From Bacteroidales bacterium (GTDB taxonomy: Bacteria; Bacteroidota; Bacteroidia; Bacteroidales; CAIWKO01): 64,000 nt of DNA. The notes beneath the pieces are model-generated. The model did no database searches. It was not told where the DNA came from and saw nothing but the letters and a program-made list of their open reading frames with translations. Position 1 is the stretch's first letter. The number at the start of each line of letters is the position of its first letter. The stretch lies in contig JALOBU010000006.1 of assembly GCA_023228145.1 (NCBI GenBank), positions 12,398 to 76,397 of the forward strand. The letters are read 5' to 3'. Shown piece after piece: positions 27,453 through 57,663 of the stretch. The position numbers and the translations under genes are program-made.

Positions 27453-28721
27453 TTATTTTGTGTAAAAATCAATCATCTTTTCAATGGCAAGGGTACAAAC
27501 CCTGCAAAAATTGTCCACGGAAATGGACTTCATGGTACAGTCGTAAGATGGGCGGTAAACGCCTTTGGTAACATAACCTCCGCCTTCAAAAACCCCGACT
27601 TTGTTTTTGTATTTCGGGTCGTTGGGTGTAGGTATCGGCGTATCCTTGTCAACAAGGATTTTCCATTTGGAATCAAAGTCAACCAGCGTTGTGAGGTTAG
27701 GATCAGGAGGTTCTACGTCCAAAGGATAAAAGTCGTTGTATGAAGTTTCTGAATCATAATATTCGTCACCCAGCCCTGCAAAGGAATGCCCGAATTCATG
27801 TGTGAAAATATACTCAGCATAGGGGTTATTGTTTACACTGAAAGCGTAATGATTATAAATAGCCCCGCCACCATACTTGGAAGTGTTTGCAATAATGTAA
27901 ATCTGGTCGTAGGGTGCATTGGAAGCTACGTTCCTCAAAGCTTTATTTTCGGAGGTCATCAGGTACCTGTCAAGGTCAAATGTATAAAACCTTGAGCCTA
28001 CCAGAGTATTTTTCCAGATTCCCTGCCCCGGGACATCACTTCCCGATTCTTTGGAAGGCGCCTTGATGGCCCAGATATTAAATTTGTTTTTATTTTGTTT
28101 GTATGGACTGGCGTTAAAAAGGTAGGTGGCAAAGGTGTTGGCATCTTGTATAAACTTATCCATTTCGGAAGAAGTATAACCTTCAGGAATTACAACGATA
28201 TCAACTTTAGCAGCTGGATCACCGGATTGAAGTATCGTTGTTTTTGGATATTCCTGCCTGCGTTCTTTTACAATAAAGTAATTTTTAGGGTCAACAATAT
28301 ATTCAAATTTCTTTTCATAAATACCCTTTCTGTTGCGGGAATGAAATTCACATTTTACCTTTTTTTTAGGGAAAGGTATGGTAACAGTTTCAGAAAAAGT
28401 CCTGTAAGTTGTTTTTGCTTCGTTGGTGGTTTGCCATTCCTGGAACAATGTATTGTAAGAATAGGAGTAAATCAGGGTGTTTTTTTCAGTATCATAAACC
28501 AACAACTTGTATTTTCCATAATTGAAAATATCCAGCAGGTTCACTTTTGAGCCGCCCCAATATGGTTCCTCTATCAGTTCATCAATTGAATATATTTCCA
28601 TGGTGTTGTTTCCTGTGTGATAATAATCGATGCGGAGGGTTTTGTTTTCAAAATAATCATCAAAACCTGCCTGTAAATTCAGGCCAATGACACAGAGCAC
28701 AGAAAAAAATAATGTTTTCAT
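27453..28721 (-). CDS. M64 family metallopeptidase (IgA peptidase M64-like)
   Basis: 422 aa with a signal peptide. The zinc motif HEFGHSFAGLGDEY is characteristic of family M64. Confidence 0.85.
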   Translation of the reverse strand: MKTLFFSVLCVIGLNLQAGFDDYFENKTLRIDYYHTGNNTMEIYSIDELIEEPYWGGSKVNLLDIFNYGKYKLLVYDTEKNTLIYSYSYNTLFQEWQTTNEAKTTYRTFSETVTIPFPKKKVKCEFHSRNRKGIYEKKFEYIVDPKNYFIVKERRQEYPKTTILQSGDPAAKVDIVVIPEGYTSSEMDKFIQDANTFATYLFNASPYKQNKNKFNIWAIKAPSKESGSDVPGQGIWKNTLVGSRFYTFDLDRYLMTSENKALRNVASNAPYDQIYIIANTSKYGGGAIYNHYAFSVNNNPYAEYIFTHEFGHSFAGLGDEYYDSETSYNDFYPLDVEPPDPNLTTLVDFDSKWKILVDKDTPIPTPNDPKYKNKVGVFEGGGYVTKGVYRPSYDCTMKSISVDNFCRVCTLAIEKMIDFYTK

Positions 28722-28898
28722 AAAATTGGCTTTTAATCAAAATGCGAAATAAATAATTTTATTGTGCAAAATACATTTTTTTTGAAAAATCAACTCATAT
28801 GTGATAAGTCTTAATAAAATTTTTGTTTAAATATTATTGACTTTTGTATGATTTTGTATTATTTTTGTTTTTTTTTAGTATAAATTAAATACAATTTT

Positions 28899-29294
28899 AT
28901 GAATACAATGACGATCATTGCCTATTTATTAGCTTTAGTAGGCGTAATTATTGGCTTTATGGGCTTGATAATAATTATAAAGGGGTTTGCAGATAAAAGC
29001 AATAAGAAAATACATCTTGGAACGATACTGGTATGTATCACACTTGCCATAGCTGTTACAGGTGGATTTTGCGCAGCAAGACATGCAATTAAATTTGTAC
29101 GTTATCATGCTTCTGAGTGTCAAAAAGGCCAAATGGATTTCAACAAATGCTGCGGGTTTAAGTTTAATCACAAAGGAATGTGCGCTTCAGGAGACACAAC
29201 AATTACAAGTGATTCAACATGTGTAAAAGTAATTGTTGAAAAAACTTGCGTCAAGGAAGGCGAAAAATCTCCTTGTCCGCATCATAATAAATAA
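28899..29294 (+). CDS. Small membrane protein with Cys-rich C-terminal domain (function unknown)
   Basis: 131 aa with two predicted TM helices. The 70-aa tail has 9 Cys (CQKG...KCCGFKFNHKGMCASG...CVKV...CVKEGEKSPCPHH). Confidence 0.5.
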   Translation: MNTMTIIAYLLALVGVIIGFMGLIIIIKGFADKSNKKIHLGTILVCITLAIAVTGGFCAARHAIKFVRYHASECQKGQMDFNKCCGFKFNHKGMCASGDTTITSDSTCVKVIVEKTCVKEGEKSPCPHHNK

Positions 29295-29333
29295 TTCGGT
29301 TTCATCCGGGTTAAAAATAGCATTGCATTGTTG

Positions 29334-31046
29334 CTAATGCATCACCATTATTTTTCTTGTTTCTTTAAAGTTGCCCGAACGTATGGATAAAAAGTATGTA
29401 CCGGCTTGTAATTCGGTTACATCCAGCCGCAGCATACGCTCATTAAGGTTTTTTTCATCTACCGCCATCACTTCTTTGCCTAAAATATCATACAAACGTA
29501 TCTGCGCAGAAGAATTTTTGGCTTGGCACATTTGTATGTAAATGTAATCCACAGCGGGATTGGGAAAAACGATGGCTTTGGTAATTTCTTTTTCTTCCAC
29601 CACGGTGGTTGTTCCGAACAAATAAAACTTATGCGGGTCGGGTTCTCCTATCAGCGGGTGTGTTTCGTTGCGCGGCGACTGGTCGGAGGCGTGGATATAA
29701 TAGGCTATGGTGTCGCCGTTTTGCTGCTGAGGAATTTCGGCTGTCCAACTGTTGCCCGAAGTGTTGGTCATGTTTATTTTTATCCAGGAGCTCCAGAAAC
29801 CGTGAAAAACTCTGTACTTTACATATACTGAATCGGGGATAATGTTGCTACCGCTTAAAGCGAATATTTCGGTATTTATGACATGTGCCTGTAGAGGCTT
29901 TTGGCCCAGCAATGGATAATGCTTTATGTACAACATGCCTTTATCTGCTATCTCGTGGGTGCGACAGTGCAGGGCATCGGTGGATTGCCAAGATGCAGTT
30001 GAAGCTAAGAAGCCTAAGACTTCATAGCCTGGCATGGCATTTTGGTAAACTTCTAATGCAGAATTATCGTATGTTGTGTTAGAACCACCTTTTATAGGCA
30101 CTAATACTTTCTTGTTTAAAATCAAAGAGTTTGTATAAGGTTGACCACTCGGCTCATAAACCCTGTAAACCTTATATTTGTTTCCAAAAGAAGAAGTTTC
30201 GTTTGCCCAGTAAGCCGCCATGGCTTCGTAATCGCTATAATGAGAATTGCTTGTAGGTACAGATGCAATCAATATTTTATCCACATCCAGAAACTTACCC
30301 CAGCAGTCTATATGTTTTATATAATCAGCCAAAGGGTCTGCAGTGATATAGTTCCTTTTAATACCCATATATTGACTAAACATTGTGTCAATCTGGGCAT
30401 GATTAAGAGTTTGATTTTCTTCTTCAACTAAATCAGTCATAGCTGCTACTTCAATTCCGTCACACATATAATTACCACCGGTGTGAAAGATGTTCATGCC
30501 GTACAAAGGCATTCCTATATATGTTGCTATAGCTCTTGGAATGGTGTCATCTGTTGGGCGATCTCTGTTGTAAGGGAAATCTATTATGGCAACAGTATTA
30601 TCATTTGTCATTATAAACCATGGACCGTAATCTCTTGTCCAATACGAGTTAAGAGGTCTAATCAAAAACTGACAGTTAGCTAGGTTTACTCCGTTTGAAT
30701 TATAATTATTTGTTACGGTGGTTTGTTGAAATGAAGAAGTAACAACGGTAATAACTTTGCAATCTTGAGACATTTCTTCGATTAGCGAATATGGGATGCC
30801 GAAATTGCCTGGGTAACTCACCAACACTGCCTGTGCGGGTTCCCATTCGGCTATGGGGCGTACCGTGCCGGTGGGCGGAGGTGTTTGGGTAAAGGCCTTG
30901 TTGTCTTTCAGCGGTGCATACAGCTCAGCCGAGTCGAGCATGTGGTATTTTGCCTGAAATTCATAAGGTACATTGCCAACATGTTGTGCGTAAGTATAAA
31001 GTGTAAAACAAAAATAACAGGATAAAATGGTAATAATACGTTGCAT
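29334..31046 (-). CDS. Secreted Porphyromonas-type peptidyl-arginine/agmatine deiminase family protein with T9SS CTD
   Basis: 571 aa counted from MQRIITILSCYF, which is the signal peptide. Guanidino-modifying motifs are WTRDYGPWF, HIDCWGKFL and the nucleophile context DALHCRTHE. The C-terminal CTD is VFPNPAVDYIYIQ...YFLSIRSGNFKETRKIMVMH. Confidence 0.75.
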   Translation of the reverse strand: MQRIITILSCYFCFTLYTYAQHVGNVPYEFQAKYHMLDSAELYAPLKDNKAFTQTPPPTGTVRPIAEWEPAQAVLVSYPGNFGIPYSLIEEMSQDCKVITVVTSSFQQTTVTNNYNSNGVNLANCQFLIRPLNSYWTRDYGPWFIMTNDNTVAIIDFPYNRDRPTDDTIPRAIATYIGMPLYGMNIFHTGGNYMCDGIEVAAMTDLVEEENQTLNHAQIDTMFSQYMGIKRNYITADPLADYIKHIDCWGKFLDVDKILIASVPTSNSHYSDYEAMAAYWANETSSFGNKYKVYRVYEPSGQPYTNSLILNKKVLVPIKGGSNTTYDNSALEVYQNAMPGYEVLGFLASTASWQSTDALHCRTHEIADKGMLYIKHYPLLGQKPLQAHVINTEIFALSGSNIIPDSVYVKYRVFHGFWSSWIKINMTNTSGNSWTAEIPQQQNGDTIAYYIHASDQSPRNETHPLIGEPDPHKFYLFGTTTVVEEKEITKAIVFPNPAVDYIYIQMCQAKNSSAQIRLYDILGKEVMAVDEKNLNERMLRLDVTELQAGTYFLSIRSGNFKETRKIMVMH

Positions 31047-31060
31047 ACTTATGTTTTTTA

Positions 31061-31068
31061 CAAATATA
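31061..31068 (-). promoter_or_regulatory. -7 promoter box (TATATTTG on minus strand) for the deiminase gene
   Basis: Plus-strand caaatata, 15 nt upstream of the ATG at 31046. It lies inside the longer ORF, which supports the shorter start. Confidence 0.55.
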
Positions 31069-31153
31069 AAAAAATATTTTTTTACTGTTTTACGCTGTGA
31101 TGTTTTTAACTTTATATTAAGAAACTGCTTTTTGATATTAAAACAAATAGGAT

Positions 31154-31161
31154 TAGTTTTG
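31154..31161 (+). promoter_or_regulatory. -7 promoter box (TAGTTTTG) for the membrane protein / radical SAM pair
   Basis: Perfect TAnnTTTG 33 nt upstream of the ATG at 31194. Confidence 0.5.
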
Positions 31162-31193
31162 TAGATTTTACTATACATATAACGTAATCTTAA

Positions 31194-32393
31194 ATGAAAA
31201 ATCTTGTTGCACTGGGTTACAAAAAAAGGAAGTTAATACTGGCGCTTATCGCTCTAGCGATAATCCTGCGTTTCATCTTTCTGAACCTATACAACTGGCA
31301 ACATGGCAATACCGGCTACAGCGGGGTGCAATACCTTGTGGATTCATTTCGTTACATAGAAGGCGCCGAAGCATTGTTGGACGGCGGAAGCCTTGATTAT
31401 AAACAGCAGCAGTTTGCAGGTTACATTGCCCTGATAGTTTTTGCAAAAATAACAGGTGCAGGGGTTTATATCGTGGTATGGTTGCAAATTCTTATGGCTC
31501 TTTTGTCCGCATATTTTCTTTATAAACTTGTGTTATCGTTTAGCGGAAGCCGTTTTGCCGGATTTACAGCTTCGGGTTTTTACCTTGCAAATCCTTTCAT
31601 CACGCAGTGGCATCTGTACATTATGACAGAATCGTTATACACGTCCATGTTGATAATTACGGTTTTTCTGCTTTACAAAGCTCTGGAGAAAAAGACCATT
31701 CGGACATATATTTCCGCCATAATTTCCCTGCTCATCATCCTTTCCATCAGGCCAAATGCATGGGTGTTGCTACCGCTGACCCTGACTTTTGGCATCCATG
31801 CATATTTAAAAAGGGCGTGGATTAAATCGCTCGTATCCATGTTTGTGACAACCTTGTTTGTTGTTATTGTTACACACCTCCCTTTTACAAATAAAGCCAT
31901 AGAAAACATAGGCACGGAACATATCCGCATGAACCAGGTGTTTCTGAACGGCGAAGTGATACCCAACTGTCCTGAGCTAAGAGTAAATATGCCGGTAGAT
32001 AATGCTTTGGCAGGAGATAACTGGAAAAAAAGTTATCTTTATATTTTACAAAACCCTTTGCCCTGCATCAAACTTGCAATTAAAAGGGTTGTTACCGAAC
32101 TTCTTCAGATAAACCGTTCATGGCTTAGCGTAAAGTATAAACTGAGGTTGTACCTATGGCTTTTCCCGGCTTACATTTTTGCATTAATTGGAGGATGGTA
32201 CTTCAGAAAAAACAAAGCCGTAAAAATAATTTTTTGGGTAGTAATTATGCACCTTATGATAATTGCTCTTACCTTTGCCGACTATGAAGGGCGTTTTCTG
32301 AATTATTTTTTGCCATTAATATATGCCTGCACTGGTTGTGGTGTAGCCATAGTCATAAATAAAATCCTGAAGAAACAACAAAGTACCGGATAA
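31194..32393 (+). CDS. Polytopic membrane protein, GT-C-like (ArnT/PMT-like) topology, function unknown
   Basis: 399 aa with about 9-10 hydrophobic helices and a long loop after the first helix. The family assignment is tentative. Confidence 0.5.
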   Translation: MKNLVALGYKKRKLILALIALAIILRFIFLNLYNWQHGNTGYSGVQYLVDSFRYIEGAEALLDGGSLDYKQQQFAGYIALIVFAKITGAGVYIVVWLQILMALLSAYFLYKLVLSFSGSRFAGFTASGFYLANPFITQWHLYIMTESLYTSMLIITVFLLYKALEKKTIRTYISAIISLLIILSIRPNAWVLLPLTLTFGIHAYLKRAWIKSLVSMFVTTLFVVIVTHLPFTNKAIENIGTEHIRMNQVFLNGEVIPNCPELRVNMPVDNALAGDNWKKSYLYILQNPLPCIKLAIKRVVTELLQINRSWLSVKYKLRLYLWLFPAYIFALIGGWYFRKNKAVKIIFWVVIMHLMIIALTFADYEGRFLNYFLPLIYACTGCGVAIVINKILKKQQSTG

Positions 32394-32420
32394 AATACAG
32401 AGGCTGAAAAGCTGCGAACT

Positions 32421-34349
32421 ATGAAAATATTATTGATAAGCCCGGGCACTCCCGACGAAATTGACAACAAAATTATCAGGCAGATACCTTACCTTTTTGC
32501 CAAAGCCAACAATGCACCTCATGCGGTAGCCACCATAGCCGCCCTCACACCACCTGAGCATGAAGTTAGCATACGGGATGAATACATGCATGGCCCTGTT
32601 GAAGAGTTTCTGCCAGGTAAAAGTTACGACATCATAGGTATATCTGTTACTTCCAACCAACTAAAACGCAGCCTGCAGATTGCAGCTGCATGTAAAAAAT
32701 ACTGCCCTTCAGCCATCGTGGTGGCAGGAGGTATCGGTGTGGAAACGCTGATTTATAAAAACAAAGAACATATTGATGTGGTGTTTCACGGAGAAGCGGA
32801 AGACACCTGGCCACGCTTTCTGAATGATGTCAAAAATCGTAATTATCAGAATGTTTACAGGAGCATCATAAAACCCGACCTTACAAAATCACCGCCGCCG
32901 CGATGGGAACTATTGGGCAAAGACATAATATCATACAACAATGTATTACTGCAAACTACAAGAGGATGCCCCTTCGACTGCAGTTTCTGCGATGTGATAT
33001 ACACATATGGCCGCAAACCCCGCAGCAAAACAATCCCTCAGGTGCTCGAAGAAATAAAAAGGTTGCAGAAACTGGGAGTGGACATCATTTTTATTGCCGA
33101 CGACAATTTTGCCGGTGACCGTATATATGTGAAAAAACTGCTGAGGCAGATGATAGCGCTGAATAAAACATTTAAAATCCCTGTGGGATTCTTTACTCAG
33201 ATTGATATCACCATCGCCGGCGATGAAGAACTGCTGAAGCTGTTGGCCGACGCCAACTTCATGGTGCTGATGATAGGCATAGAATCGGTGAATATTGAGT
33301 CGCTGAAAGATATGAACAAAAAACAAAACCTTGTTCTCCAGCTCGATGACGCGGTGTGCAAGATACAGTCCTATGGGATGGTGATACTTGCACACATGAT
33401 TATTGGCGCCGATTCTGATAACAAAGATATTTTCCGGCTGACGGCTGAGTTTATTCAGCGTAACAATATTGTTTTTCATATTTGTCATCCACTGGCGGCA
33501 CCCCCGGGCACAAAAATGTGGTATGAATACAAAAGACAGGGGAGGCTGGTAACTACCGAACATCAGGATGCCAGCGACAAACTTGATATTATCACAAACA
33601 TTATCCCGAAACAAATGTCGCGCATAGAGCTTCTGGAAGGCCTGGCAGCGTATTGGGATGATATTTACAAACCGGAGAAGTTTCGGGAAAGAGCTATTGG
33701 CTTCCTGAAGGGCATCACCTACAAACCCGCAGTAAGAACCTCAGGACTCAGGCTGATGTGGCATATGCGCAAAATGGTTGCTGGAGTTTTTGTTTACTTT
33801 TTCTTCAGGGCAGAAAAGATGCACCGCAAAACTTTCATAAAAATTGTCTCTCATTTTAAGACAAGGTTGCCCCGGATGATGGAAAAAATTATATTTACAT
33901 ACACCATTTATCTGATTGATTCCAAGCGCTCGGCTTATGATGCAGCAGTAGCAAGGGAAATGGCTGCCTGGGAAAGGGAAAATCCAAGTATGGTAACAAA
34001 AGATACCTGCAGCATTCCCGTTCCGGATAATATCAGGAAGCACGCAGCTTCGCTGATTGATGAAATTTACAAGTCTCTGCGGCAACATACTGCAGATAAA
34101 GAAACCATATACCATGCTGCTGTGGATGTGCTGATGGATTTTAGCGACCGTTTCGGCAATAATTTTGTGGAGCTGGATGAGTTTTACAGGGAACAGCTGA
34201 AAATTGGCTGCGAAAGCATGGCCGAAAAGATAAAACTCTCTGACAGAGTTTCAGGGGTTTCCCTGCCGGAAAAGCAACCCACGGGTTTTTCCCGCGAAAT
34301 TATGGATGCCCTTGATAATGCGGTAAGGTATCGGAATATTTACGGATAA
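32421..34349 (+). CDS. B12-binding domain-containing radical SAM protein
   Basis: 642 aa. There is an N-terminal Rossmann-like B12-binding region, the radical SAM cluster motif RGCPFDCSFCDV (CxxxCxxC), and a long helical C-terminal extension. Confidence 0.85.
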   Translation: MKILLISPGTPDEIDNKIIRQIPYLFAKANNAPHAVATIAALTPPEHEVSIRDEYMHGPVEEFLPGKSYDIIGISVTSNQLKRSLQIAAACKKYCPSAIVVAGGIGVETLIYKNKEHIDVVFHGEAEDTWPRFLNDVKNRNYQNVYRSIIKPDLTKSPPPRWELLGKDIISYNNVLLQTTRGCPFDCSFCDVIYTYGRKPRSKTIPQVLEEIKRLQKLGVDIIFIADDNFAGDRIYVKKLLRQMIALNKTFKIPVGFFTQIDITIAGDEELLKLLADANFMVLMIGIESVNIESLKDMNKKQNLVLQLDDAVCKIQSYGMVILAHMIIGADSDNKDIFRLTAEFIQRNNIVFHICHPLAAPPGTKMWYEYKRQGRLVTTEHQDASDKLDIITNIIPKQMSRIELLEGLAAYWDDIYKPEKFRERAIGFLKGITYKPAVRTSGLRLMWHMRKMVAGVFVYFFFRAEKMHRKTFIKIVSHFKTRLPRMMEKIIFTYTIYLIDSKRSAYDAAVAREMAAWERENPSMVTKDTCSIPVPDNIRKHAASLIDEIYKSLRQHTADKETIYHAAVDVLMDFSDRFGNNFVELDEFYREQLKIGCESMAEKIKLSDRVSGVSLPEKQPTGFSREIMDALDNAVRYRNIYG

Positions 34350-34392
34350 TATTTACATGCAACAGGCTTACACGCCTAAAGATGTAGCGGAA

Positions 34393-35100
34393 TCAATTGT
34401 TTTTAGGGGTTTTTGTTTCCCCGGGAGGCGTTTTCTGAGTTTTCCTTTTAATAGTACTTGTCTTTTTGCTAACGGTTTGTGACTTTTTCTTAGCTGCTAA
34501 TTCTACTTCTTCCTGGGTCAGCCCTTTGATAAATTTTTTTGTTTCAACAACAGAGCCGTCTCCGGCATAGGTAATCCAGTCGCCGTCTCTGAGTCCGTCT
34601 TTATATTCTCCCTGTAATTTCAACTTGCCTTTAGAATTGTAATATTTCCAAAACCCCTCTCTCTTTCCCTTATTATAAAAGCCTTCACTTTTGGTTTCGT
34701 TGTTTACAGGGTAATAGGTAATCCATTTGCCGTTTTTTTTACCGTTCTCATAGAAACCTTCGCTTATCAGCAGGCCGCTATAGGAATATCGCCTGTATTC
34801 CCCGTCACGCTTTCCGTTGAAGTAATTAGATTCTTCAATGACAGTTCCCGTGGATGTTGAGCGTCGGGTACAGGACCCGTGTTTTACGTTGTTTTGAAAA
34901 GTAACTTCCATAAATAATATTCCGTCACGAGTGAAATATTTCCACAAGCCCTGTTTATGTCCCAGACTGTCAATTTTATTTCTGTGTTTCTCAGAAATTC
35001 TGGAATACTGTGGACGTATTAATATCTCTTCCTGCGCCATAAGGAGAAGCGGAGAAAATAAAAAAATCAGGATAAGAAATTTAGAAATAAAATGTTTCAA
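34393..35100 (-). CDS. MORN-repeat (YwqK-like) protein with Lys/Thr-rich tail
   Basis: 235 aa with a signal peptide. Repeated YxNGKxxGxW units are present, and the C-terminal tail is basic (KKKSQTVSKKTSTIKRKTQKTPPGETKTPKNN). Confidence 0.7.
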   Translation of the reverse strand: MKHFISKFLILIFLFSPLLLMAQEEILIRPQYSRISEKHRNKIDSLGHKQGLWKYFTRDGILFMEVTFQNNVKHGSCTRRSTSTGTVIEESNYFNGKRDGEYRRYSYSGLLISEGFYENGKKNGKWITYYPVNNETKSEGFYNKGKREGFWKYYNSKGKLKLQGEYKDGLRDGDWITYAGDGSVVETKKFIKGLTQEEVELAAKKKSQTVSKKTSTIKRKTQKTPPGETKTPKNN

Positions 35101-35120
35101 TTCCCTTATTTATTTCATTT

Positions 35121-35128
35121 CAAAAATA
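35121..35128 (-). promoter_or_regulatory. -7 promoter box (TATTTTTG on minus strand)
   Basis: Plus-strand caaaaata, 21 nt upstream of the ATG at 35100. Confidence 0.5.
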
Positions 35129-35332
35129 ATAAAAAAAATTATTAGCCTTATAAATAAGTTTAATACGAAATTATTAACATAAAGGTTTGTTTTTTTAAGA
35201 ATAAAATATGTCAGGTCAATATGTAGAGCTTGGAGGGGTTGAAATGAATAGAGTAAGTTGTTTATAATTGAATTAAGGTTCGGTTCCTATGGAGTAACAG
35301 CTTGCTTGTTTTACTCATCTTATAAATATCCG

Positions 35333-35366
35333 ACACTTCCGGCACCGAATTGCCGTGTATTTTTTT
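35333..35366 (+). terminator. Orphan intrinsic terminator-like hairpin on the plus strand
   Basis: Stem cggca / loop ccgaat / stem tgccg, with a short outer extension, followed by aTTTTTTT. No plus-strand CDS lies upstream of it. Confidence 0.35.
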
Positions 35367-35507
35367 GTTGTATTGACTTCGTAAAAGTCAGATATTTATA
35401 AAAGCAAAACAAATAATACTTTACCCGACTATAGCGTTGTCGCATATATTCACTGAGTCAGTGTCCGAAATTATGCCGGTATTTTTGGTAATTGAAAAGA
35501 TTGAACG

Positions 35508-36068
35508 CTATTTTTTTAAAGGGTATTTTTTGTCAAGATATATCCAGAACAAAGGCTTGTATCCTTTTAACTCTCCATCTTCAGAATATTGTGCAACAGC
35601 AGGGGCTATTCCCACTACTTTCTTTTCCATCAAAAAGTTCTTTTCATCAAAATACCATTCTTCAAGAAATGTAAGCCTGTGAATGTCTTTTCGCTCCAGT
35701 TTTACGTTTATGATGGTGTCTTTTTCATCGTAGGGAGGCACAGAAGAAGGCATCAGGAGAGTATCTGACCTGCTGAAAATATGGCCAATATGTTTTTTAC
35801 TTAATTCTGAGTTATCAATGTAATCGTAAGCTTTAACCTTCCCTTCGGCAACGGCATCAAGCAGGAGATTGACGAATTTTTCTCTTTTCGGGCCTTCGAG
35901 GTTTTCTTTCCACCAGTCGGTTTCTTCTTCATAAGGGCATTTTATAAATACGGGGTATTGTATTCGTTCAGTTAGTATTGTTTTATTGTCATGGGAATTG
36001 TTATTGTTACATGAAACAATAAAAAACAATATTCCCAAAAGGGGTAATAAAAAATAAATACGTTTCAT
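35508..36068 (-). CDS. Hypothetical lipoprotein
   Basis: 186 aa with the lipobox-like signal LLGILFFIVSCNNN. I recognise no family motif. Confidence 0.55.
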   Translation of the reverse strand: MKRIYFLLPLLGILFFIVSCNNNNSHDNKTILTERIQYPVFIKCPYEEETDWWKENLEGPKREKFVNLLLDAVAEGKVKAYDYIDNSELSKKHIGHIFSRSDTLLMPSSVPPYDEKDTIINVKLERKDIHRLTFLEEWYFDEKNFLMEKKVVGIAPAVAQYSEDGELKGYKPLFWIYLDKKYPLKK

Positions 36069-55493: not shown

Positions 55494-55500
55494 GCTTTCT

Positions 55501-57663
55501 ATGGCAGGGGAAACATCTAAAGGCGGAAAGAAAGCGTCTTTAAAGCAAAAAGCATCACAGCACAGGCCTCCTATTACCATAGAAAATAAACAAAAAAGAG
55601 GACTGCCGGCTAAATATATAAAATGGCTTGTTTTTGCTTTTGCATTAGCGTTATATGCAAATACGCTTGACCTGAAATATGCTTCCGATGATTCATTGAT
55701 GATTACCGGAAATGAGTTTACAAAAAAAGGAATATCCGGTATAAAAGATATACTTACCAATGATGCGTTTGTAGGTTTTCTTGGTAAAAACAACCTCTTG
55801 CCCGGAGGTCGTTACCGCCCCCTGACTCAAGTTATGTTTGCTGTTGAAAAAGAATTGTTTGGCTTTAACCCATTTGTAGGTCATTTGCTTAACATAATTT
55901 TTTACGCCATCACCTGCATGCTTCTTTTTGTAATTCTGCAAAGACTTTTTCGAAATTATACAGCAAATTACTGGTATCTGAGCATTGCATTTATTGCTGC
56001 GATTTTGTTTACGGCACATCCCCTGCATACCGAAGCTGTTGCAAATATCAAAGGGCGTGATGAAATTATGAGTTTGTTTTTTTCACTGCTCACGGTGTGG
56101 CTTGTTCTGGTGTACCTCGAAAAACAAAAACTGTGGATGATTATTTTAAGTGCAGTCACATTTATTATGGCTATTTTGTCCAAAGAAAATGCTGTTACAT
56201 TTATATTAATTGTTCCCCTGATACTTTTTGTTTTTACAAAGTCAAAAAAAAGAGACCATATACTTTGCCTGTCTTCGCTCATAGCTGCTGCCCTTATATA
56301 TTTTGTCTTCAGGATAAGCATGATAGGGTTGAGGTTAGGTGATATTAAAGTAGTGGAATTACTCAATGACCCGTTCACAGACGCAACATTTATTGAAAAA
56401 TATGCAACTGTTTTTTATACCTGGTTAAAATACCTTGGACTGATGATTTTTCCACACCCGCTGACTCATGATTATTACCCAAAACAAATTCCAATAATTA
56501 ATTTTTCGGATGTCAGGGCTTTGCTGTCTTTTTTAATATATACCACTTTACTTGTGTTTGCCCTCTGGAAGATAAAAAACAAAAACATGTATGCTTTCGG
56601 AATATTGTTCTTTTTTATAACTTTTTCTACCGTATCAAATTTTGTGATTAATGTCGGGACTTTTATGAACGAGCGTTTCTTGTTTACTTCTTTGACAGGA
56701 TTCACAATAATTGTTGCATATTTTCTTGCTGTTACTTTGAGAAAAAAAATTAAAAACACTAGTACATACAGAACATGGGTTATCGTAGTTTTGGTTTTGG
56801 TTTTATCGGCTTATTCAATAAAAACTGTTAGCCGCAACAGAGTATGGATGGACGATTTCACGCTTTTTACCACGGATGTTAAGGTCTCGGCAAACAGCAC
56901 AAAATGTAACACCTCTGCAGGAGGCAAGTTGCTCGAAAAAGCCGACTCCAATGACAACGAGATTCAAAAAAATAAATATATAACACAATCGGTAAAATAT
57001 CTTACCAAAGCTCTGGAAATTTATCCCAAAAATCTTAATGCATTGATATTGCTCGGCAATGCAAAAATCAAACAAAAAGAATATGCGGCTAGTCGAAATT
57101 GCTATGCGGCTTGCCTTGCATATAACCCGAAACATAACCATGCCCTTAACAACTTACTGCACCTCGCACAATATACTTATGATAAAGACGTCTATGATGA
57201 GTCAGCGAAAACATATACCCTTTTGTTGAAATACCAACCCGATATACCTGAGAACTATTTCGGCTTAGGCCTTGCATACAGGGGCATGCAGAAATATGAT
57301 TCCGCCTTATCTTTTCTGAATCATGCACAGAAATTAAAACCTGATTATGTGGAAGCTATAAGCAAAATGGGCGAGATTTATGGGCAGGACCTACACAATC
57401 TTGATAGTTCCGAAGCTTTTTTTCAGAAGGCTTTAACAATCAAACCCGATGATGAATCATCACTTGAAAACCTTGGAATTGTTTTTGGCATACGGCGTAA
57501 CTACGAAAAATCATTATTTTATTTTCGTAAAGCACTGGAATTAGAACCCGACAAACATCAGCTTTATATGAATATTGCCGAAACATACCGCCTTATGGGA
57601 GATATGAAGTCATACACTGAGTATAAAATGAAATCTGAACAAATTTTTAATAAAAAACAATAA
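55501..57663 (+). CDS. TMTC-like GT-C membrane protein with C-terminal TPR repeats
   Basis: 721 aa counted from MAGETSKGG. The N-terminal polytopic region has YASDD in the first loop and GGRYRPLT. The C-terminal ~300 aa contain TPR repeats. The gene starts 8 nt after the PP2C stop. Confidence 0.7.
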   Translation: MAGETSKGGKKASLKQKASQHRPPITIENKQKRGLPAKYIKWLVFAFALALYANTLDLKYASDDSLMITGNEFTKKGISGIKDILTNDAFVGFLGKNNLLPGGRYRPLTQVMFAVEKELFGFNPFVGHLLNIIFYAITCMLLFVILQRLFRNYTANYWYLSIAFIAAILFTAHPLHTEAVANIKGRDEIMSLFFSLLTVWLVLVYLEKQKLWMIILSAVTFIMAILSKENAVTFILIVPLILFVFTKSKKRDHILCLSSLIAAALIYFVFRISMIGLRLGDIKVVELLNDPFTDATFIEKYATVFYTWLKYLGLMIFPHPLTHDYYPKQIPIINFSDVRALLSFLIYTTLLVFALWKIKNKNMYAFGILFFFITFSTVSNFVINVGTFMNERFLFTSLTGFTIIVAYFLAVTLRKKIKNTSTYRTWVIVVLVLVLSAYSIKTVSRNRVWMDDFTLFTTDVKVSANSTKCNTSAGGKLLEKADSNDNEIQKNKYITQSVKYLTKALEIYPKNLNALILLGNAKIKQKEYAASRNCYAACLAYNPKHNHALNNLLHLAQYTYDKDVYDESAKTYTLLLKYQPDIPENYFGLGLAYRGMQKYDSALSFLNHAQKLKPDYVEAISKMGEIYGQDLHNLDSSEAFFQKALTIKPDDESSLENLGIVFGIRRNYEKSLFYFRKALELEPDKHQLYMNIAETYRLMGDMKSYTEYKMKSEQIFNKKQ

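Follow-up and report, generated by a model that had tools for sequence, protein, structure and literature searches.

The protein treated here is a radical S-adenosylmethionine (SAM) protein, in the following rSAM. It is encoded directly downstream of a gene for a polytopic membrane protein (MEMB) in a 64,000-nucleotide (nt) stretch of contig JALOBU010000006.1 from an uncultured Bacteroidales bacterium. This whole stretch is called the window. A sequence-only reading had proposed that both genes form a functional two-gene unit. The comparison with other loci draws a different picture: Probably, the two genes function separately, are neighbours by descent in a narrow clade of uncultured Bacteroidales and do not encode an obligate enzyme pair. 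rSAM represents a discrete, uncharacterised family of class-B architecture with a C-terminal domain of its own. The two genes and their spacer are located as follows:

31194..32393, plus strand: gene for MEMB, open reading frame (ORF) of 399 amino acids (aa), polytopic, predicted GT-C fold, GT39/PMT_2-like
32394..32420, plus strand: spacer between the MEMB and rSAM genes, 27 nt
32421..34349, plus strand: gene for rSAM, ORF of 642 aa, radical SAM protein of class-B architecture from a well conserved family

Both ORFs and their distance are exactly as they had been described from the sequence. The species of the window is present in several public samples with identical gene order. An apparent anomaly, a 99% match for MEMB vs. 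a best match of 67% for rSAM, only arose from the way the hits were listed: The searched collection contains the exact rSAM as well, in the same arrangement.

Relationship of the two genes

Loci were gathered from genomes (20), metagenomes (74) and further contigs and are designated below by L and a number. Their ORFs were called and all neighbours clustered. Adjacency was counted in 80 loci with a full-length rSAM ortholog, lineages in the 40 that had enough upstream sequence. MEMB is located directly upstream of rSAM in 6 of the 80 loci. When grouped at 90% rSAM identity, these loci represent 3 of 40 lineages, and at 75%, 2 of 23. The adjacency is found in the window, L016/L035, L021/L060 and L033, whose downstream genes differ. 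Furthermore, the rSAM family outnumbers the MEMB family more than 100-fold (more than 2,300 matches vs. 18 clusters). In a neighbour-joining tree of rSAM, the loci with MEMB (window, L016, L021, L033) are scattered among loci without it (L006, L010, L015, L034, L008 and a clade characterized by an O-methyltransferase gene, OMT clade), and all of them belong to one family-level clade.

Traces of MEMB are still visible in this clade. In L006/L032, the frameshifted last ~110 nt of MEMB are located directly upstream of an intact rSAM gene. This remnant was found by blastn (73% over 181 nt, E 6e-24, in an alignment that includes the rSAM start), and tblastn agrees. Shorter MEMB traces are present in L015/L037 and in L019. 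Based on the frameshifted remnant and the shorter traces, MEMB appears to be ancestral in the clade and to have been deleted repeatedly. Where MEMB was deleted, rSAM is under strong purifying selection: The ratio of nonsynonymous to synonymous substitution rates (dN/dS) amounts to 0.025-0.04 between MEMB-negative and MEMB-positive genomes and to 0.025-0.03 for L006/L032. Distant MEMB homologs with 33-35% identity (from Marinilabiliales and from another Bacteroidales metagenome-assembled genome, MAG) are followed by the Omp85-family gene tamL, not by rSAM. Since MEMB is rare, dispensable and was recently deleted beside an intact and constrained rSAM, a two-gene unit is not supported, and this part of the sequence-only reading is mostly refuted. 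Neither conserved adjacency across independent lineages nor joint retention and loss, by which a unit would be recognized, was observed. The same reading had named the lack of synteny in other genomes as a finding that would speak against a unit, and with 3 of 40 lineages this is largely the case.

A co-transcribed functional unit, in which MEMB makes, transfers or flips a lipid- or glycan-linked molecule and rSAM modifies it, is rather unlikely. It would account for the short distance of 27 nt between two genes of one strand, in which no RNA element was found, and for the maintenance of the pair in the window, L016/L035, L021/L060 and L033 despite their differing downstream genes. In addition, both genes adjoin tamL in other lineages, for which a rough estimate yields a chance of ~2% for ~25 independent contexts, and a different membrane protein with PMT_2 and tetratricopeptide repeat (TPR) domains is encoded at most three genes from rSAM in L025/26/84/99. 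However, the restriction of the adjacency to 3 of 40 lineages, the rarity of the MEMB family and the frameshifted remnant beside an intact rSAM gene in L006/L032 (dN/dS ~0.03) argue against such a unit. The same applies to a conserved promoter-like box between the bulk of MEMB and rSAM, and to the window's own homolog of the PMT_2/TPR protein, which is encoded 21 kb away.

This homolog (window 55495-57645, plus strand) has 41% identity to the ~715-aa membrane proteins with PMT_2 and TPR domains. Their cluster, C40, was considered as a MEMB homolog and rejected, because the similarity is confined to the shared Pfam region, with a best E-value of 7e-5 for one pair. An Rfam scan of positions 28500-35500, which did not include terminators, yielded zero matches, also for the 27-nt spacer. 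A riboswitch or another RNA element around both genes was thus not found.

Promoter-like boxes

Two boxes that resemble the -7 element of Bacteroidetes-type promoters are relevant for the two genes:

31154..31161, plus strand: Bacteroidetes-type -7-like box TAGTTTTG, 33 nt upstream of the MEMB ATG, within the spacer that separates MEMB from the divergent gene for a PAD-like protein
32270..32277, plus strand: another -7-like box, TACCTTTG, in the 3'-terminal part of MEMB; it precedes the rSAM ATG by 151 nt and is a candidate for an internal promoter

The first box had already been recognized, and its position is correct. It had been regarded as the single one, which does not hold due to TACCTTTG. 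In the window, the consensus TAnnTTTG occurs 97 times, whereas 88 +/- 9 occurrences are expected by chance. As this frequency is at chance level, the TAGTTTTG box is no evidence by itself, and its function as MEMB promoter is plausible.

The comparison between loci is more informative for rSAM. In every locus of the clade that was examined except the window and L008, a T-run and a TAC[CAT]TTTG box are found 92-109 nt upstream of the rSAM ATG. The box is present with or without MEMB and kept in all MEMB-less relatives. Where MEMB is present, it corresponds to the codons N-Y-F-L-P-L; where MEMB was lost, the box is what is left. L008 carries a different box, TAGTTTTG, at -75. In the window, the sequence at -100 has drifted to TTGCCATTA, and only the -151 box is available there. 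The latter is intact in the window and also found in relatives, which have boxes at -150 and ~-100. The gap between the two genes, which share a strand, is only 27 nt; on the other hand, the 3' end of MEMB contains promoter-like boxes, which are kept in MEMB-less relatives. These boxes suggest that rSAM has its own Bacteroidetes-type promoter in the MEMB 3' end.

TAC[CAT]TTTG is also a candidate for a promoter that overlaps a conserved protein motif, in this case of MEMB. The corresponding region is found at L006:7864-8000 and, in addition, in L032, L015, L037, L019, L034, L010 and L007.

Adjacency to tamL

tamL is the direct downstream neighbour of rSAM in L048/50/54/88/98, which represent about two species (coordinates L048:8001-12652). 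Similarly, tamL (NF052279) is located directly downstream of the distant MEMB homologs in two lineages (L022:8001-11599 and L024:6309-10023). The identity of the Omp85-family neighbour is clear from NCBIfam: TamL reaches 713-726 bits vs. a cut-off of 400, and by this match BamA, the other candidate, is ruled out. No MEMB remnants were found in the rSAM-tamL loci. tamL serves outer-membrane homeostasis. It is essential, occurs throughout the Bacteroidota and does not share an operon with tamB (PMC12045153).

The adjacencies MEMB-rSAM, MEMB-tamL and rSAM-tamL occur each in a different lineage. According to the rough estimate given above, they are unlikely to have arisen by pure chance. This suggests an ancestral order MEMB, rSAM, tamL. 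The triangle may reflect inherited gene order around a housekeeping gene instead of functional selection. Of all observations, it is the only one that still speaks weakly for a functional connection. A much bolder proposal is that an envelope module once existed in ancestral Bacteroidota, of which rSAM, the small GT-C protein and tamL are left, and that members of the rSAM family act without oxygen on a membrane lipid of anaerobic Bacteroidales, by C-methylation or C-C coupling. This is very improbable. If it were true, abundant bacteria of lake sediments and digesters would be a source of an unassigned lipid that is methyl-branched or otherwise modified.

The radical SAM protein and its family

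Class-B radical SAM enzymes catalyse difficult reactions on unactivated carbons, and most of their subfamilies have no assigned function. In rSAM, the following regions can be distinguished:

32421..32870, plus strand: predicted Rossmann-like N-terminal domain of B12-binding type, residues ~1-150 (Pfam B12-binding, 30.5 bits, and predicted structure)
32967..32990, plus strand: CxxxCxxC cluster motif (C183, C187, C190)
33510..33896, plus strand: DUF4070 region, residues 364-492 (Pfam PF13282, 36 bits vs. a cut-off of 22)
33897..34346, plus strand: helical, family-specific C-terminal extension, residues 493-642 (alignment, predicted structure and phmmer)

rSAM belongs to the radical SAM superfamily. 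The Pfam family Radical_SAM is matched with 62.4 bits vs. a cut-off of 29.5, and the cysteines C183, C187 and C190 are invariant in 51 of 51 orthologs, in agreement with the canonical cluster motif noticed before. In the same alignment, H353 and H356 are invariant, C355 and C597 are 98% conserved, and the C-terminal extension contains the invariant residues R503, E518, P620, G622, R625, D629 and D632. Since only these three cysteines are invariant and two (C355 and C597) nearly so, an auxiliary Fe-S cluster seems unlikely. No hydrophobic segment of transmembrane strength was found in rSAM.

The AlphaFold2 model of rSAM has a predicted local distance difference test score (pLDDT) of 90.3 and a predicted template modelling score (pTM) of 0.90. 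Strands and helices alternate through the N-terminal domain and the barrel, and residues 401-641 are almost all helix. The alternation in the N-terminal domain is read as Rossmann-like. The sequence-only reading had expected a helical C-terminal extension of ~200 aa. In the model it is helical indeed, but larger: It comprises ~240 aa, the last 150 of which lie beyond DUF4070 and are predicted with confidence. When the model was compared with the Protein Data Bank (PDB) using Foldseek, AprD4, TsrM, OxsB, MgmA, CysS and TokK were found with E-values of 1e-14 to 1e-10 and a probability of 1.0, at 13-18% identity, query-relative template modelling scores (TM-scores) of 0.43-0.52 and 480-650 aligned columns. 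This supports, at the level of the predicted fold, the class-B architecture that had been assigned to rSAM. A search of the PDB by sequence yielded TokK, MgmA and AprD4, which align around the cluster motif only, so that an assignment by sequence was dropped.

AprD4 has the class-B fold and is not known to use cobalamin. No sequence motif is known to be diagnostic for cobalamin use. rSAM might be a cobalamin-independent member of the fold like AprD4 and convert a soluble metabolite in a radical reaction other than methylation (dehydration, cyclisation or rearrangement). AprD4 is indeed the top structural match with the highest target TM-score (0.73), Pfam B12-binding stays with 30.5 bits under its gathering score of 32.1, and some genomic contexts described below point to redox or metabolite chemistry (YgfK-like, histone-deacetylase-family and cyclase genes). 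However, rSAM scores 29 bits against a cut-off of 500 with the AprD4 family model, and the cobalamin binders TsrM, OxsB, TokK and CysS match at nearly equal E-values in a structural comparison that cannot separate cofactor use. Such a cobalamin-independent enzyme is unlikely.

With NCBIfam, rSAM is far below the cut-off of all 25 listed families, and the matches lie within the common core. The curated cut-offs of the compared subfamilies range from 250 to 775 bits. The best score was obtained for PhpK (82.9 bits vs. 600), followed among others by TIGR04014, the MgmA family (65 vs. 360), HpnJ (63 vs. 578), HpnR (62 vs. 650), TIGR03975 (59 vs. 282), TIGR04072 (59 vs. 360) and ApyD (52 vs. 750). 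PhpK, BchE, TIGR04014, KedN5, HpnR, HpnJ and TIGR04072 were rejected as subfamily assignments, likewise the C-methyltransferases of ribosomally synthesized and post-translationally modified peptides (RiPPs), ApyD, ArsL, AprD4, TsrM and BzaD. The earlier view that rSAM lies outside the characterised subgroups thus withstood this comparison.

The partial matches to TIGR04014, TIGR03975 and ApyD, together with MgmA (9ccb) among both the structural and the PDB sequence matches, could indicate that rSAM modifies a protein or peptide, as class-B enzymes of the Mmp10/MgmA or RiPP C-methyltransferase type do, and that its C-terminal domain recognizes a protein substrate encoded elsewhere. The lack of a conserved small-molecule pathway neighbour would fit a housekeeping protein target. 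Against this speak the scores, which are far under the cut-offs (65 vs. 360, 59 vs. 282 and 52 vs. 750), the lack of a precursor peptide or a conserved adjacent small ORF in ~40 lineages, and Pfam, which reported no SPASM, twitch or RRE-type domain. A protein or peptide substrate is quite unlikely.

Among 5.8 billion proteins, more than 2,300 rSAM matches were found. The top 120 homologs all have ~640 aa, 45-67% identity and near full-length coverage. They originate mostly from Bacteroidales/Bacteroidota MAGs and one from Chitinivibrionales. When the last 150 residues of rSAM were searched exhaustively with phmmer, 28 representative clusters were obtained among 1.84 billion proteins. Here, the match is always C-terminal, in proteins of ~645 aa or fragments thereof. 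As far as these searches indicate, the last 150 residues are private to the family.

The membrane protein

MEMB has ~10 hydrophobic segments. Pfam PMT_2 matches residues 82-229 with 25.0 bits vs. a gathering score of 26.1. Among 5.8 billion proteins, 18 clusters of MEMB homologs were found, 15 of which have a precomputed PF13231 match. The family is restricted to a few Bacteroidales and Marinilabiliales lineages, and its 99%-identical members are named 'glycosyltransferase family 39 protein' by NCBI. In an alignment of 17 sequences, the motifs D50-x-x-R53-Y54, T145-E146-S147, R186-P187-N188-G189 and R367-F368 are invariant. D50 in D-x-x-R-Y is located right after the first transmembrane helix and present in 17 of 17 homologs. 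Its loop presumably faces the periplasm.

The AlphaFold2 model of MEMB has a pLDDT of 87. With Foldseek it matches STT3 (TM-score 0.52-0.53, E 7e-4), EmbA/B/C (EmbC 0.50), ArnT, PIG-M, ALG9 and the GT-C-fold protein PIG-U. The probabilities range from 0.66 to 1.0 and are at least 0.85 for all GT-C matches except ArnT. The other matches are noise with a TM-score of ~0.1, i.e. the meaningful ones are GT-C only. The structural matches to STT3, EmbB/C, ArnT, PIG-M and ALG9 as well as the GT39 naming by NCBI support the GT-C-like nature of MEMB that had been predicted from its sequence.

Other genomic contexts of the radical SAM gene

Across the 80 loci, no neighbour of rSAM conserved across clades was found. 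An SBF-like transporter and PurB, encoded downstream of rSAM in the wider clade of the window, are the most frequent neighbours and were considered as candidates; they are confined to this one clade and look like inherited gene order. In one other clade (seven loci), a Methyltransf_2 O-methyltransferase and/or a 474-aa B12-rSAM are encoded 16-75 nt upstream of the rSAM ortholog. The 474-aa protein is present in four of the seven loci (L001, L002, L014 and L017) and matches TIGR04072, 'lipid biosynthesis B12-binding/radical SAM protein', over its full length with 331 bits vs. a cut-off of 360. The O-methyltransferase of this clade is BchU/CrtF-like. The upstream genes of the clade are located at L001:6501-7925, with counterparts in L002, L014 and L017, and at L003:6884-7984. 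In L017 and L014, an NDH-2-like gene is found just upstream.

In L012, the rSAM ortholog heads a same-strand run composed of genes for a thioesterase, an ECH protein, an AcpS-like protein, a second ECH protein, a StlD/DarB-like ketosynthase, an rSAM paralog and a 3-hydroxyacyl-CoA dehydrogenase. The paralog is a B12-rSAM of 520 aa with 29% identity. This operon-like run (L012:10025-15924, plus strand), in which the thioesterase is of the 4HBT type and the AcpS-like protein a phosphopantetheinyl transferase (PPTase), looks like an acyl-lipid or alkylresorcinol-type pathway with two B12-rSAMs. A KAS II gene is located upstream on the opposite strand.

Further contexts are of a different kind. 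In L025/26/84, the rSAM ortholog is preceded on its strand, at a distance of 39 nt, by the gene for a YgfK-like Fe-S flavoprotein (L025:4669-7962, plus strand, ~1,095 aa, TIGR03315 with 907 bits vs. 835). Possibly, it is a dedicated reductant or electron donor in that clade. In L028, rSAM is flanked by a histone-deacetylase-family gene and a cyclase gene, while genes for TPR proteins or for a TrkA_C protein are adjacent to it in other clades. In the window, L027 and L090, at most three genes separate rSAM from an acyl-CoA ligase gene that belongs to the same cluster in all three. Taken together, the OMT/TIGR04072-like, L012 and tamL contexts and the acyl-CoA ligase lean weakly to a lipid or another hydrophobic substrate of rSAM. 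A lipid- or glycan-linked substrate, as had been derived from the pairing with MEMB, is therefore possible on the ground of these other contexts and not of the pairing.

Neighbouring genes in the window

The window neighbours of the pair, as assigned by Pfam and by comparison of the loci, are a PAD-like protein sorted by the type IX secretion system (T9SS), an M64 peptidase, a MORN-repeat protein, a GldN-like protein, an acyl-CoA ligase and a short-chain dehydrogenase/reductase (SDR). None of them is a precursor peptide or belongs to an obvious pathway, as had been stated before.

The PAD-like ORF (PAD_porph and T9SS C-terminal domain, window 29334-31178, minus strand, 614 aa) is probably over-extended at its 5' end. 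Its homologs have 554-575 aa and align from residue 29-62, mostly from 36 onward, and a signal-peptide-like start, MQRIITILSCYF, is found at residue 45. With this start, the divergent spacer to MEMB would comprise ~147 nt instead of 15 nt. The PAD-like deiminase, the M64 (IgA-type) peptidase and a small Cys-rich membrane protein of 125-131 aa, to which no Pfam family corresponds, form a conserved block with rSAM in the clade of the window (window 27453-31178; L006, L010, L015, L016 and L021). At 35508-36068 on the minus strand, a 186-aa protein with a partial match to GldN (gliding motility/T9SS) is encoded, apart from any gld/por cluster in the examined region.

Proposed function and significance

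According to the proposed mechanism, MEMB would be a small membrane glycosyltransferase with GT-C fold, an accessory that is unrelated to rSAM. By analogy with known GT-C enzymes, it might take over a sugar that is linked to polyprenyl phosphate and transfer it to an acceptor at the periplasmic face. D50 of the first loop would probably serve as acid/base in catalysis. rSAM would have a promoter of its own within the 3' end of MEMB and act alone as a soluble or peripheral enzyme of the cytoplasm. It would start with a Rossmann domain of B12 type, followed by a partial TIM barrel, whose CxxxCxxC motif would bind one [4Fe-4S] cluster, by DUF4070 and by a helical domain of 150 aa. Reductive cleavage of SAM would yield a 5'-deoxyadenosyl radical that abstracts H from an unactivated carbon. 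A cobalamin-mediated methyl transfer would most likely follow, and a cyclisation or rearrangement could take place as well. The substrate would probably be a small molecule that is hydrophobic or resembles an acyl lipid, and the helical C-terminal domain would hold it.

Several points weigh against two separate genes and a lipid-directed, cobalamin-using rSAM. The loss of MEMB was judged at the loci, and a copy elsewhere in a genome is possible, although the rarity of the family (18 clusters) speaks otherwise. The three adjacencies among MEMB, rSAM and tamL could mean that a cluster was once selected, which would partly restore a functional link. Cobalamin use is a prediction: AprD4 is the closest structure, and Pfam B12-binding is below its threshold. 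Furthermore, the contexts of rSAM are varied (YgfK-like, histone-deacetylase-family and cyclase, TrkA_C and TPR genes), and those related to lipids are perhaps a selected subset.

The rSAM family is widespread in uncultured anaerobic Bacteroidales, found also in Chitinivibrionales and conserved over its full length. Strong purifying selection and a C-terminal domain found nowhere else indicate that rSAM very probably performs a defined, useful and as yet undescribed reaction. Since MEMB is dispensable and rare, the clue of a membrane partner should not steer experiments. Better leads are the acyl-lipid operon of L012 and the clade that pairs rSAM with a TIGR04072-like lipid rSAM and an O-methyltransferase.

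Comparison with known systems

MEMB resembles GT-C enzymes (ArnT, PMT, STT3/PglB, EmbA-C, PIG-M and ALG9), which are likewise polytopic and helical and have an invariant Asp in the first loop. In contrast to them, it has only 399 aa, lacks a large periplasmic domain and displays 11-15% identity to solved structures. Compared to the PMT_2/GT39-GT83 type (ArnT and PMT), its PMT_2 score is just under the threshold (25.0 vs. 26.1), and its family is very small.

Lipid-modifying radical SAM enzymes are another group for comparison. Tes, Mss and Gms were rejected as a match, because they are not of the B12 type, and Grs, Gmm and Hpn, because they are archaeal or linked to hopanoids. In a review of lipid rSAMs, none was reported from Bacteroidales (PMC13459092). 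A literature search on DUF4070, B12-rSAMs of Bacteroidetes/Bacteroidales and rSAMs for membrane-spanning lipids yielded nothing on the present family.

DUF4070 is also part of other radical SAM enzymes of B12 type, among them HpnP, HpnR and HpnJ of hopanoid biosynthesis. With HpnP/HpnR/HpnJ and TIGR04072 (ladderane-cluster type), rSAM shares the B12-type core, over which the hidden Markov models match partially. Its scores are, however, 6- to 10-fold under the curated cut-offs of HpnR, HpnJ and TIGR04072, and neither the window nor the other loci showed genes for hopanoids, ladderanes or tetraethers.

The solved class-B enzymes are the closest relatives in architecture. rSAM resembles TsrM (6WTE/6WTF), OxsB (5UL2/5UL4) and TokK (7KDX/7KDY) in the Rossmann-like domain, the partial TIM barrel with CxxxCxxC and the helical C-terminal region, which binds the substrate in these enzymes. 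CysS (9N1B-D), MgmA (9CCB) and the cobalamin-free AprD4 (6FD2) have the same domain order. The identity to the solved enzymes is 13-18%, and the last 150 residues of rSAM have no counterpart there. Many orphan radical SAM families like this one exist. New here are a family to which no function had been assigned and the C-terminal domain that is specific for it.

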